DNA of 32,011 nucleotides. Origin: a virus. Lineage: Duplodnaviria > Heunggongvirae > Uroviricota > Caudoviricetes. The notes under the pieces were generated by a model. The model saw only the letters and a program-made list of their open reading frames with translations. It did not search any database and was not told where the DNA came from. Position 1 is the first letter of the stretch. The number at the start of each line of letters is the position of its first letter. The stretch spans positions 1-32,011 of IMG/VR virus record IMGVR_UViG_2695420503_000024; one strand, 5' to 3'. The position numbers and the translations under genes were made by a program. This document shows, in pieces, positions 1,440-32,011 of this stretch.

Positions 1440-1446
1440 CCGTTTC

Positions 1447-1533
1447 GCTGAAAAACATAACCCATAAAATGCTAGCTGTACCAGGAACCACCTCCTTAGC
1501 CTGTGTAATCTCCCTTACACGGGCTTATTTTTT
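1447..1533 (+). ncRNA. cyaR: CyaR (RyeE) Hfq-dependent small RNA
   Basis: Sequence GCTGAAAAACATAACCCATAAAATGCTAGCTGTACCAGGAACCACCTCCTTAGCCTGTGTAATCTCCCTTACACGGGCTTATTTTTT matches recalled CyaR, including the CCUCCU seed and the terminal hairpin plus U-tract. Confidence 0.85.
1507..1533. repeat. attL core: 27-bp AATCTCCCTTACACGGGCTTATTTTTT, identical to 31508-31534
   Basis: Exact 27-bp direct repeat at both prophage ends; it overlaps the 3' end and terminator of cyaR. Confidence 0.85.
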
Positions 1534-1595
1534 ACGCGTAATACAATGAAATAAAAGGATTTATTTCTGGTCACGTCCACACATTGACCACATCG

Positions 1596-1623
1596 ACAAA
1601 AAAGCCCCTCGACTGAGGGGCTT
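1596..1623 (-). terminator. Rho-independent terminator downstream of ogr
   Basis: Minus-strand hairpin AGCCCCTC-AGTC-GAGGGGCT followed by a T6 run, 12 nt after the ogr stop. Confidence 0.6.
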
Positions 1624-1634
1624 CCTGTTTGTAA

Positions 1635-1853
1635 TTACATCCACATAATTTGCTGCCCTGACGGCAACGGGTGCGGCCTCACGGCGTGGACTTCTCCCGG
1701 CTTCACGATGTATCGCTGTACCGACTCATAAGTGATGAACGTGGCGCTGCAATTCACGTTCTGGCACTGGTGATAACGCTCTTTTGTCGTGTCAGTGATA
1801 TAGCGACTTGTACGCGCATGTGCGGCATGCTGGCATAAAGGACAATGAAACAT
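1635..1853 (-). CDS. ogr: Ogr zinc-finger late-gene transcriptional activator (72 aa)
   Basis: MFHCPLCQHAAHARTSRY...CQNVNC has the Cys4 zinc-finger spacing of P2 Ogr; ATG at 1853 has a GAGG RBS 8 nt upstream. The ORF-track N-terminal extension was rejected. Confidence 0.88.
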   Translation of the reverse strand: MFHCPLCQHAAHARTSRYITDTTKERYHQCQNVNCSATFITYESVQRYIVKPGEVHAVRPHPLPSGQQIMWM

Positions 1854-24175: not shown

Positions 24176-25498
24176 TTAGTTTGTTTTTTTAACTCCACTG
24201 TATTCCGCTATCATCCTCTCAACCGCTGGAAGCAACTCAGCAGGAACGCAAATAGACCTATCTGCCTTTCCAACATCTTTTGGCGTTTTGTAAGTACCAT
24301 TATAATTAAGGACGCATTCTTTAAGAATTTCAAAAAGAGAAACAATAGGGTCTACGCCATAGCTATCAATAAACTTTCGATAGCTATCATTATCAGATAA
24401 CGATGAAATATCTCCATGAACAAACTTACACCTAAGCTCATAGATTATTCCTATTTTTGAATCAATATCAATAATTTTCGCCGCATCTCTGCAAACACCG
24501 CCAATAATTGAATTTTTATTACCATTATTGGTTCCATACATAGCATCCAATGCTATAAATTGATTCAAAAACCTTTCACGTTTGTCATCCCTCCACCCGT
24601 GCGCTATAAAGGAAAGAGCAGACAACATCCTTTTATCAGGTGATGAAAGTATTTTTGTAAGTATCGCCAAGGCTGAATCCGTTATATTTAAATTATATAC
24701 AGACGGAATATTCACCCGAAACTCACTTTCATGATATTTCCCGACACCAAAAGACTCAACTAGATTATTAACAGCAACTCGATTAATCGCAAAAGGATTA
24801 TCAACCGCAAGACATAAAGCTCCAAACAAACTATCAAACATTTTCACCGCTTTATCCTCTGATGAAGCATATGCCACCACCAAGCAGGATTTTGACTGTC
24901 GAAAATATTTCCCAATTGGTTTATGCCGCATATATTCATCATCATAAAAATCAACAGGAACCTTGATGTCAGTTTTGTCTTTAATATCAGAAAGTAATTC
25001 CACCCCTAGCCCCGGGCCATATAAAAATAAATTTTCTCTAAGCTCAAGCTTCCCATCAAAGCCAGCACACCCAAGATTATAAATATACGGACAGGATTTT
25101 ATTCGTGAAAGCATATAATACTTAAACATCTCACTAAGATTTTTTCTATGAACTTGCGTTATAATATCATCAACACAAATCTTATCAGGATTAAGCGACA
25201 GAAAATCAGCATCAATGCGATTGAAGGCTTCAGAACAAAAACCTAACAATAATCTTTTCGCATTGTGAAGGTCACTTATACCTAATTGGGGGCCATATGC
25301 TTTTAATAACCTACTAGCACATTTTGCAATCTCCTCATCATCATATGCAAGCCAAAAAACAAAATCTTCTAATGCTTTACCGACTTGGATACAAGGCTGC
25401 TCCTTACCATGACTATAAAAAAAACTTTTGCATAATTTGTTTATCATGCCATTAGAGAACGCAACCTTCATAGATACTTCATCCCTTAACGCACTCAT
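24176..25498 (-). CDS. Hypothetical 440-aa protein, AT-rich cargo gene at the P2 old/tin hotspot; candidate anti-phage defense or abortive-infection protein
   Basis: Clean 1323-nt ORF with ATG and an AAGGA RBS; roughly 30-35% GC against ~60% in flanking phage genes; occupies the position of P2 orf91/tin/old; no Walker A motif, no TM segment; contains a weak HEPN-like R-x4-H (RCKFVH). Confidence 0.75.
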   Translation of the reverse strand: MSALRDEVSMKVAFSNGMINKLCKSFFYSHGKEQPCIQVGKALEDFVFWLAYDDEEIAKCASRLLKAYGPQLGISDLHNAKRLLLGFCSEAFNRIDADFLSLNPDKICVDDIITQVHRKNLSEMFKYYMLSRIKSCPYIYNLGCAGFDGKLELRENLFLYGPGLGVELLSDIKDKTDIKVPVDFYDDEYMRHKPIGKYFRQSKSCLVVAYASSEDKAVKMFDSLFGALCLAVDNPFAINRVAVNNLVESFGVGKYHESEFRVNIPSVYNLNITDSALAILTKILSSPDKRMLSALSFIAHGWRDDKRERFLNQFIALDAMYGTNNGNKNSIIGGVCRDAAKIIDIDSKIGIIYELRCKFVHGDISSLSDNDSYRKFIDSYGVDPIVSLFEILKECVLNYNGTYKTPKDVGKADRSICVPAELLPAVERMIAEYSGVKKTN

Positions 25499-30414: not shown

Positions 30415-31428
30415 ATGGCAATCAAAAAACTCGATGATGGTCGATATGAAGTGGACATCCGCCCTACTGGACGTAACGGAAAACGCATCCGTAGGAAGTT
30501 TGATAAGAAAAGCGAAGCTGTCGCTTTCGAAAAATACACGTTGTACAACCACCACAATAAAGAATGGCTATCAAAACCAACAGACAAACGACGTCTGTCG
30601 GAACTGACACAGATCTGGTGGGATTTAAAGGGTAAACACGAAGAGCATGGGAAATCTAATCTTGGAAAAATTGAAATCTTCACAAAAATAACGAATGACC
30701 CATGCGCATTTCAAATCACGAAATCCCTTATCAGCCAGTACTGCGCCACCCGAAGAAGTCAGGGTATTAAACCTTCGAGTATCAATCGTGATTTAACATG
30801 TATTAGCGGCATGTTTACAGCCCTGATTGAAGCGGAGTTATTCTTTGGTGAGCACCCTATCAGAGGGACAAAGAGGCTTAAGGAGGAAAAACCAGAAACA
30901 GGCTATCTCACACAGGAAGAAATTGCCTTACTGCTTGCAGCACTTGACGGCGACAACAAAAAGATTGCGATTCTTTGCCTGAGTACAGGAGCACGTTGGG
31001 GAGAAGCAGCTCGTTTGAAAGCAGAAAATATCATCCATAACCGCGTCACGTTTGTTAAAACGAAAACAAACAAACCACGCACCGTCCCGATCTCAGAGGC
31101 TGTTGCCAAAATGATCGCGGATAACAAACGAGGTTTTTTATTCCCTGATGCTGATTACCCTCGCTTCAGACGAACAATGAAAGCAATAAAACCGGATTTG
31201 CCAACGGGGCAAGCCACACATGCACTAAGGCACAGCTTTGCCACTCATTTCATGATTAATGGAGGAAGTATTATCACGCTACAACGGATACTAGGTCACA
31301 CGCGGATTGAGCAAACTATGGTTTACGCTCATTTTGCGCCAGAGTACCTTCAGGACGCCATTTCTCTTAATCCGCTAAGAGGTGGTACTGAAGCCGAGAG
31401 TGTCCACACAGTGTCCACAGTAGAGTAA
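30415..31428 (+). CDS. int: Tyrosine integrase (337 aa)
   Basis: Closely matches recalled P2 Int; catalytic HALRHSFATH (H-x-x-R) and TMVYAHF (Tyr) motifs; lies next to attR. Confidence 0.92.
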   Translation: MAIKKLDDGRYEVDIRPTGRNGKRIRRKFDKKSEAVAFEKYTLYNHHNKEWLSKPTDKRRLSELTQIWWDLKGKHEEHGKSNLGKIEIFTKITNDPCAFQITKSLISQYCATRRSQGIKPSSINRDLTCISGMFTALIEAELFFGEHPIRGTKRLKEEKPETGYLTQEEIALLLAALDGDNKKIAILCLSTGARWGEAARLKAENIIHNRVTFVKTKTNKPRTVPISEAVAKMIADNKRGFLFPDADYPRFRRTMKAIKPDLPTGQATHALRHSFATHFMINGGSIITLQRILGHTRIEQTMVYAHFAPEYLQDAISLNPLRGGTEAESVHTVSTVE

Positions 31429-31507
31429 CGTTTAAGGGCTTTCAGTGGTAATTTATGCCGCTCAAACCCGCATTGTACCGTTGAAAGCCCCTACTGGTGA
31501 CACCCTA

Positions 31508-31534
31508 AATCTCCCTTACACGGGCTTATTTTTT
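31508..31534. repeat. attR core: 27-bp AATCTCCCTTACACGGGCTTATTTTTT
   Basis: Exact copy of 1507-1533, 80 bp downstream of the int stop. Confidence 0.85.
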
Positions 31535-31693
31535 TATGCATAAGCCCTATCTCTGGTAACCGTCTTCCATTGACCACATCGATAGAATCCTCCTTCATAG
31601 CACGATGCCTTTCACTTATCGGCATCGTGCTCCCACAGGTTCCGGCTACGCACAGCCAGAACGCGCATATTTGACGCTTACCAAAAAATATTC

Positions 31694-32011
31694 TCACTCT
31701 CCACATTTGAATGTCAGACGAGCGACACCATGTAATCCTACACCTTCTGTCTTCAGCTCAACTATTTGCATTTTTTTGCCCTGAGTAACACAGAAATGAG
31801 TTGCATCATTTTTTACTATATTTTCTGCACCAGATATTCTACCCCTGGCTAAAGAAGCTTCGGCTTCGGTGTAGTATTGGTTATCGAGTTTACGCTGAAT
31901 ATTACTTTTATATGCAAGACCAAATTTACCGATACTTGTCTCATCATTATGCACAGCACAACCAGACATAATAAAAATACTAATTAATGATATAGCAGCT
32001 ATCTTTTTCAT
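31694..32011 (-). CDS. yegR: Lipoprotein YegR (105 aa, complete; start at the window edge)
   Basis: MKKIAAISLISIFIMSGC signal peptide with lipobox; matches recalled E. coli YegR from the cyaR/ogrK neighbourhood. Confidence 0.8.
   Translation of the reverse strand: MKKIAAISLISIFIMSGCAVHNDETSIGKFGLAYKSNIQRKLDNQYYTEAEASLARGRISGAENIVKNDATHFCVTQGKKMQIVELKTEGVGLHGVARLTFKCGE

Follow-up and report, generated by a model that had tools for sequence, protein, structure and literature searches.

Why should the bacterial chromosome next to an integrated phage resemble the arm of the phage itself? The attachment site used by P2-like phages at the 3′ end of the cyaR small RNA gene of E. coli raises this question. 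The window analyzed here, a stretch of 32,011 nucleotides from the IMG/VR record IMGVR_UViG_2695420503_000024, is filled by a complete P2-like prophage with yegQ-cyaR on its left and yegR on its right, and the chromosomal flank directly past the right-hand core shares sequence with the phage arm that lies past the left-hand core. The 27-bp core, which is the 3′ end of cyaR, matches the annotated attP core of P2 (AF063097) exactly. The two cores enclose ogr, D, terminase and portal genes, A, cox, C, and int, every one of which matches the Pfam family expected of it, and the att region is 97.8% identical to that of phage P2 and 99.4% identical to that of Peduovirus P22H1. We name the junctions as in GenBank AF063097, which calls the ogr-side junction attR and the phage arm there the “P arm”; the int-side arm is P-prime in the features of that record and the Cox sites are on the P-prime arm. 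A first-pass annotation of this DNA had spoken of attL and a P-prime arm for the ogr side; those labels suit the orientation of the window, and by P2 convention they become attR and P arm. The prophage also has a 440-aa ORF at 24176-25498 (minus strand), in a cargo position between the portal side and the replication gene A, a place taken in P2 by old and tin. Neither Pfam nor PADLOC gives a match for it, its sole match is to phrog_23812 (function unknown), and it is possibly an uncharacterized defence or moron gene. The features of the left-hand side, the prophage ends, and the two junctions are as follows.

1445 to 1530, plus strand: the cyaR (RyeE) small RNA gene (Rfam RF00112, 100.7 bits, E 3e-19), whose terminator provides the P2 core.
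1507 to 1533: the 27-bp core AATCTCCCTTACACGGGCTTATTTTTT at the ogr-side junction (attR, P2 convention), an exact direct repeat of 31508-31534.
1532 to 1565: the IHF site position in the phage ogr-side arm, placed by homology to the P2 protein_bind feature (L122, 304-337), the spacer length being equal in both phages.
1569 to 1596: the Int arm-type binding region of the ogr-side arm (P2 annotation “Int, P arm”, L122, 341-368).
1601 to 1624, minus strand: the Rho-independent terminator of ogr and the F operon (P2 annotation, L122, 373-396), with hairpin and T-run visible.
1635 to 1853, minus strand: ogr, the late-gene activator (Pfam Ogr_Delta, E 1e-21).
30415 to 31428, plus strand: int, the tyrosine integrase of the prophage (Pfam Int_N and Phage_integrase).
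31394 to 31420: Int arm-type repeats of the int-side (P-prime) arm, GTGTCCACA twice (sequence and P2 annotation, L122, 165-191).
31508 to 31534: the 27-bp core at the int-side junction (attL, P2 convention), a direct repeat of 1507-1533.

The answer that we favor, with a probability of roughly 0.68, is that the E. coli flank descends from the ogr-side arm of a P2-like element and is part of an old integration at this site. That a single P2-like element delivered both ends of the insertion together with yegR is something we infer with somewhat less confidence.

The likeness begins with the integrase-binding part of the arm. In P2, the order outward is core, IHF site, Int-binding region, and ogr terminator (AF063097). 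The Int “P arm” region of P2, GGTCACGTCCACACATTGACCACATCGA, is identical in the window prophage at 1569-1596, and on its minus strand lie two repeats at 11-nt spacing, TGTGGACG (1574-1581) and TGTGGTCA (1585-1592), both of which fit the consensus tgTGGaCa for P2-type arm repeats (PMC3448106). The 15-mer CATTGACCACATCGA covers the distal repeat and lies wholly within the annotated Int footprint. The first-pass annotation had pointed to the exact occurrence of this 15-mer on the phage side (1582-1596) and on the chromosomal side (31568-31582), and we confirm that these are its only occurrences in the whole window even with up to 2 mismatches allowed, for which shuffled sequence gives a mean of 0.08 matches per window. 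Its further observation, that the sequence ahead of the 15-mer is alike and that the distance to the core differs, also holds: TCTGGTCACGTCC at 1566-1578 faces TCTGGTAACCGTC at 31552-31564, the 15-mer starts 49 bases past the core end on the phage side vs. 34 on the chromosomal side, an ungapped comparison of 1562-1601 with 31548-31587 gives 75% identity over 40 nt, and global alignment of the two arms gives z 7.6, above 2000/2000 shuffles. P2-like prophages at cyaR in Citrobacter, Enterobacter, Huaxiibacter, Scandinavium, and others have the ogr-side arm in common, cATTGACCACatcga included. The arm recurs in L128, an IMG/VR phage whose core is different, and L128 has the 20-mer CATTGACCACATCGATAGAA in common with the E. 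coli flank. The chromosomal copy is found in E. coli and Shigella only. Because this arm occurs in P2-like prophages across many genera, and in one case beside another core, the direction of transfer runs from phage to chromosome, and the chromosomal copy is the derived one.

On the chromosomal side of the window, the features are these.

31535 to 31587: the flank homologous to the phage ogr-side arm (a putative “fossil arm”), from alignments.
31568 to 31582: the chromosomal copy of the 15-mer, with the distal repeat TGTGGTCA intact at 31571-31578.
31599 to 31631: a perfect 11-bp hairpin without a T-run, from sequence and fold.
31694 to 32011, minus strand: yegR, a small lipoprotein gene and the probable cargo of an AT-rich islet (ORF; yegR annotation in identical E. 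coli loci).

The flank begins at 31535, directly past the core; it aligns collinearly with 1534-1601, and its side and strand are those of the arm in attP. It reads, in order, ATGCATAA (where the phage has ACGCGTAA), a gap of ~16 nt relative to phage arms at the position of the IHF site, CTCTGGTAACCGTCTTC, and CATTGACCACATCGATAGAA. A P2-type P arm has two Int repeats, and in the flank the distal one alone is intact; the position of the proximal repeat agrees with the arm-type repeat at 2/8 bases in register and 5/8 with a 1-nt shift, and is thus decayed. In the window allele, the alignment gap falls over TGAAATAAAAGGATTT, at the expected position of the IHF site. On the 3′ side, a hairpin without a T-run and then yegR take the place of the ogr terminator and ogr, and no Ogr-like coding potential was found in the flank past the core in the window. 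The N-terminal domain of P2 Int, which would bind a P2-type P arm, may or may not bind the flank.

Variation among flank copies clarifies the alignment. Our flank set has 113 copies in 27 haplotypes, drawn from IMG/VR prophage calls that overrun into host flank and from a few E. coli and Shigella loci. Short alleles like that of the window are the majority, and 6/113 copies are ~12 nt longer. The gap is closed in the long alleles L130 and L158, which keep a diverged IHF-site region with a recognizable GGATTnAT stretch, and the lack of a stretch in this region in the common allele accounts for the 49 vs. 34 spacing. Ahead of the 15-mer, L130 reads ATGCATAAGCTGTAAATACGGATTGATCCCTGGTCACCGTCTTC, and with the 15-mer left out this stretch agrees with the phage arm of the window at 32/44 positions with small gaps (z 5.8, 0/2000 shuffles); whole-arm alignments give z 7.6-11.6. 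An nhmmer profile made from 15 phage arms recovers true remnants, namely those of the K-12 type and the truncated ogr-side arms past the core in E. albertii (E 1.5e-8) and in a divergent Escherichia lineage, L090 (E 2.7e-5). The same profile scores the common short E. coli allele at 7.4 bits (E 0.078) and misses other alleles, so that it is too blunt for a signal of 33 nt. In 4/113 flank copies, which we call L134-type junctions, the first 8 nt past the core are the phage-type ACGCGTAA and not ATGCATAA, which hints that exchange sometimes extends past the 27-bp core or that the host allele is variable there.

A comparison across species shows what the site looks like without the flank. One genome per species was scanned for a conserved cyaR 31-mer, which gave 114 loci (L008-L121), and yegS was located in 83 Enterobacteriaceae species. 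In 53/83 of these, cyaR directly abuts the yegS promoter without yegR, and the distance from the core to the yegS start codon is 74-136 nt. These species include Escherichia sp. E1V33, the one Escherichia lineage with an empty site in the sample. Among the scanned species, yegR is present only in E. coli, Shigella, and L090, which was deposited as E. coli SCPM-O-B-8794 and is a separate species in GTDB. The adjacency of cyaR and yegS without yegR in 53/83 species implies that the yegR interval was inserted. In E. coli and Shigella, this islet between cyaR and yegS is 810-1036 nt long and has a GC content of 37-39%, vs. 50-54% for yegQ and yegS.

The other end of the islet, a degenerate core followed by the yegS promoter, lies ~330-430 nt past the last base of the window. 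Its sequence comes from K-12, NC101, EDL933, NMBU-W10C18, and L090 (loci L001, L007, L090, L123, and L124), loci that have a flank identical or nearly identical to that of the window, and the right junction is present in 5422/5426 E. coli genomes. When the E. coli yegR-yegS spacer is compared with the empty site of E1V33, homology runs leftward from yegS through the promoter into the degenerate core and ends at the left edge of this core. The degenerate core thus sits at the position of the naive core, which it matches at 15-18/27 bases in four E. coli strains; the K-12 copy, AATCCTCCATACTTGAACTGACTTTTT, has 17/27 (binomial p 4e-4), and the L090 copy, AATCTCTCTTATGCAGACTGACGGTTT, has 20/27 (binomial p 3e-6). 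At the positions of the second core at which K-12 and L090 disagree, one of them usually keeps the core base, which adds up to ~24/27 by hand count and indicates an ancestor near 24/27. The 60 nt left of the degenerate core resemble the int-side arm in a position-anchored comparison (z 3.8, 3/2000 shuffles), while unanchored local alignment is not significant (38/500 shuffles as good), and against cyaR the same 60 nt give z 1.3. Both the int-side-arm similarity and the K-12 degenerate core owe their persuasiveness entirely to their position. L090 has other sequence in place of the arm and hairpin segment (31535-31632) and shares the yegR-adjacent part of the islet, so that the arm and yegR may have come from two successive events.

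Searches for phage genes in the islet gave no support for a coding remnant: tblastn of four islets with 260 prophage reading-frame segments as queries found no significant match, and blastn in distant mode, with the flank as query and 50,697 phage records as targets, found only two records that contain host flank, together with chance Vibrio matches. The gap between cyaR and yegS is a general insertion hotspot in Enterobacteriaceae, as >400 nt of other DNA (0.6-4.4 kb) lies there in 28/83 species. In several of these intervals, including islets of Enterobacter and other genera, a second core is found 78-93 nt before the yegS start codon, with 23/27 matches in L012, L024, and L083 and 24/27 in L097. 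We also note a difference in the cyaR terminator (1495-1527), the descending strand of which is TTACACGGGC in E. coli, as in the P2 core; most Enterobacteriaceae (for example, L023 and L050) and the degenerate second core of L090 have TTACGCAGGC or TTACGCGGGC at this strand. The 3′ half of the E. coli cyaR terminator may have been overwritten by phage sequence.

The gene inside the islet has its own history. The YegR family (PF27694) is almost absent outside E. coli and Shigella, and homologues that are 46-50% identical are located among IS elements beside an omptin gene, or at an unrelated chromosomal site (loci L241, from Enterobacter sp. BIDMC 29, and L244-L246). These settings are consistent with a small mobile gene. 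A strong match to phrog_21109 might suggest that YegR is a known phage protein; we rejected this, as the match probably comes from prophage calls with host flank. The YegR matches in phage collections are confined to records that carry host flank, and the distant homologues are not in P2-like phages. For example, AY639599.1 (“Phage TP”, a K-12 fragment) and ON470606.1 (vB_EcoM-720R8) carry E. coli yegQ, cyaR, or yegR. Host flank inside such “phage” records has led to the listing of yegR as a phage protein family.

How old the flank is, and whether it is phage DNA at all, can be weighed from its distribution. Flank 31535-31700 is present in 5417/5426 complete E. coli genomes, with yegR always adjoining. 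When a construct of cyaR joined directly to the flank was compared with E. coli genomes, BL21 proved to have an empty site that matches at 500/500 positions in one uninterrupted piece, and BL21 and the window are 100% identical over flank 31535-31700. Of 60 genomes taken at even steps down the ranking, 37 have an uninterrupted empty site, 8 have an empty site with a flank allele ~170 bp longer, 5 have the K-12 arrangement, and 10 are split (occupied or rearranged). In K-12, cyaR and the core lead into the phage arm, followed by ogrK, a truncated D, the partial core ACACGGGCTTATTTTTTT, and finally the E. coli flank, and since the flank lies beyond the ogrK-D′ remnant it is independent of it. 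The first-pass annotation had read the flank as a decayed phage arm, similar to the ogrK remnant of K-12, that the present prophage had replaced or inserted beside. The homology and its direction sustain the decayed arm, although only as an insertion older than the diversification of E. coli and with yegR as part of it; the likeness to ogrK fails, and so does the encounter with a recent remnant, as the prophage used an ordinary attB. That annotation had also held that its reading would fall if naive attB sites of strains without any past P2-like element had the 15-mer and its flanking similarity, and, taken literally, our survey of the locus across E. coli genomes found this, as BL21-type empty sites carry the flank. 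Remnants do arise at cyaR, as seen in K-12 (ogrK-D′), E. albertii, and L090, yet a recent, strain-specific remnant of the ogrK type is extremely improbable for a flank that is shared with an empty site, is nearly universal in the species, lies outside the remnant in K-12, and has no phage genes from the core to yegR in the window. A recent origin of the similarity through gene conversion or recombination past the core, between the resident prophage arms and the flank, would accommodate the L134-type junctions, where ACGCGTAA replaces ATGCATAA and some mixing beside the core is apparent. However, chromosome-only bases stand on either side of the 15-mer, CCGTCTTC upstream and CGATAGAATC where the prophage has CGACAAAAAA, so that a phage arm of the resident type cannot be the template; in addition, the long alleles differ throughout from all sampled phage arms (GGATTGATCCC vs. 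GGATTTATTTC), and the flank is unchanged in empty-site genomes. We regard recent exchange as very unlikely. An ordinary conserved host motif without phage ancestry, arrived at by chance or convergence, would explain why the flank is species-wide and locally well conserved, but it leaves an exact 15-20-mer with 32/44 more matches in register with the core, which is beyond chance, and the motif is absent from the cyaR flank of ~90 other species, whose sites are empty or differently filled. The entire yegR interval is moreover an insertion bounded by core copies, and a host motif is accordingly hardly credible.

A more subtle alternative accepts phage descent and proposes that the 15-mer block is now under selection, through host co-option (as yegR 3′ region, small ORF, or protein-binding site) or because binding of P2 Int would favor the site. 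Conservation of the block is the main argument. The 30-mer at 31560-31589 is 100% identical in 5236/5415 E. coli records (96.7%), whereas 34.7% have a perfect copy of the neighboring 30-mer and 29% have ≥99% identity over the whole 166-nt flank, and within the arm the distal repeat is intact where the proximal repeat and the IHF region are decayed. From a rough hand count of common polymorphisms, the chance of no common variant across 30 nt is ~0.03, which makes constraint suggestive, not compelling, and Shigella flexneri has one substitution and one indel inside the 15-mer block. Structure is a further argument, as the minus strand of 31500-31700, downstream of yegR, folds at −71.5 kcal/mol vs. 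−49.5 for shuffles (z −5.5). Besides the 11-bp hairpin there are perfect hairpins at 31639-31662 and at 31522-31547 (GGGCTTAT/ATAAGCCC, overlapping the core), none followed by a T-run. Against a selected structure, the 27 haplotypes contain no compensatory changes in the flank hairpins, and two independent changes in one base pair are uncompensated. Scans for promoters and terminators across 31380-32011 found nothing beyond shuffle expectation. A 10-codon ORF, MWSMEDGYQR (31547-31579, minus strand), has a Shine-Dalgarno-like AAGGAGG ahead of it at 31589-31595; its codons 1-7 lie within the conserved 30-mer, and codons 8 and 10 vary among alleles. The phage arm has an ORF of the same length without a Shine-Dalgarno sequence, so that the ORF of the flank may be an accident of shared ancestry. 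A yegR knock-out, which had no phenotype in chemostats (PMC3708739), also speaks against selection. The frequency of occupation speaks against a role in integration, as P2-like phages are at cyaR in 14/114 species representatives vs. 10/60 split sites in E. coli, about equal, and because P2-like phages integrate at cyaR in genera without the chromosomal arm, the arm is not needed for integration. On these sequence data, selection on the block is possible but unlikely. The related proposal of a hybrid attachment site, in which the core adjoins an Int arm-type site that survives from an ancient prophage and would be kept by selection, either to recruit Int (with a bias on integration, excision, or tandem lysogeny) or through adoption by the host as yegR 3′ region or 10-codon ORF, is in our judgement somewhat more doubtful still.

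We return to descent from an old integration, which could have proceeded as follows. Before the diversification of E. coli, a P2-like element far older than the resident prophage would have integrated at the same cyaR core. What is left of it would be the AT-rich islet of ~0.8-1.0 kb from cyaR to yegS, in which the intact core would be followed by the decayed ogr-side arm of the ancient element (one arm-type repeat, with the IHF region decayed or deleted), the hairpins, yegR, a stretch like the int-side arm, the degenerate second core, and the original yegS promoter. The core attached to cyaR would have been kept perfect by its role as terminator of a functional small RNA, while the other core was free to decay. 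The P2 “attB” of E. coli would then be the ogr-side junction of the old insertion, where new P2-like phages keep inserting. The resident prophage entered the 3′ end of cyaR through ordinary Int-mediated core recombination. The arm itself is most likely inert today. Younger stages of the same process can be seen at this locus in the Enterobacter islets with cores of 23-24/27, the arms in E. albertii and L090, and K-12 ogrK. Some observations run against this reading: the 15-mer block is much better conserved than its neighbors, as neutral decay would not lead one to expect, there is no phage coding remnant, and the phage-arm profile score of the short allele is weak.

If descent from an old arm is correct, the supposedly native flank of the P2 attB in E. 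coli probably consists of old phage DNA, and the orphan lipoprotein gene yegR probably represents the last cargo of an ancient phage. For practical purposes, similarity between the flank and a phage arm at the cyaR locus is no evidence for a recent or strain-specific remnant, and prophage-boundary callers may overrun into the flank, as in several “phage” records in the databases. The locus is also a worked example of a small-RNA terminator reused serially for integration, with remnants of different ages side by side. Should the surviving arm-type site still bind Int, this would bear on the preference for the cyaR site. Prophage remnants at the cyaR site and RNA-gene 3′ ends as integration hotspots are well known. 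In the literature searched, we found no description of homology between the attB flank and the P2 arm, or of yegR as a phage remnant; the P2 attachment-site papers of the 1990s were outside this search, and an earlier description is possible. Overall, the E. coli arm is a modest curiosity and no new kind of element.

Of the systems to which this locus can be compared, the closest in sequence is the P arm of P2 attP (AF063097). Order and register from the core are as in the flank, the distal repeat and its surroundings are identical (15 nt with the prophage, 20 nt with L128), and the first 8 nt past the core are similar. Unlike P2 attP, the E. coli flank is chromosomal and fixed in the species, its proximal repeat is decayed, and an unrelated hairpin and yegR follow. 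A second comparison is the cryptic P2 remnant of K-12 at cyaR (ogrK and a truncated D gene), reportedly described by Barreiro and Haggard-Ljungquist in 1992. Site, phage family, and the process of integration followed by internal deletion would be shared with the older arm. However, the K-12 remnant is recent, with an arm and ogr almost identical to those of living P2, phage genes retained, and an occurrence in K-12-type genomes only, whereas the arm described here is far older, species-wide, and without a recognizable phage gene. More broadly, RNA-gene 3′ ends are recurrent integration hotspots, for example at the sdsR locus in Salmonella (PMC3333887). At such sites, integration duplicates the 3′ end, the RNA gene retains an intact copy while its counterpart decays, and islets differ by lineage, as they do at cyaR. 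The cyaR site differs from other RNA-gene hotspots in that an arm-type integrase site survives beside a core that is still used, which makes this attB partly like an attP half-site.
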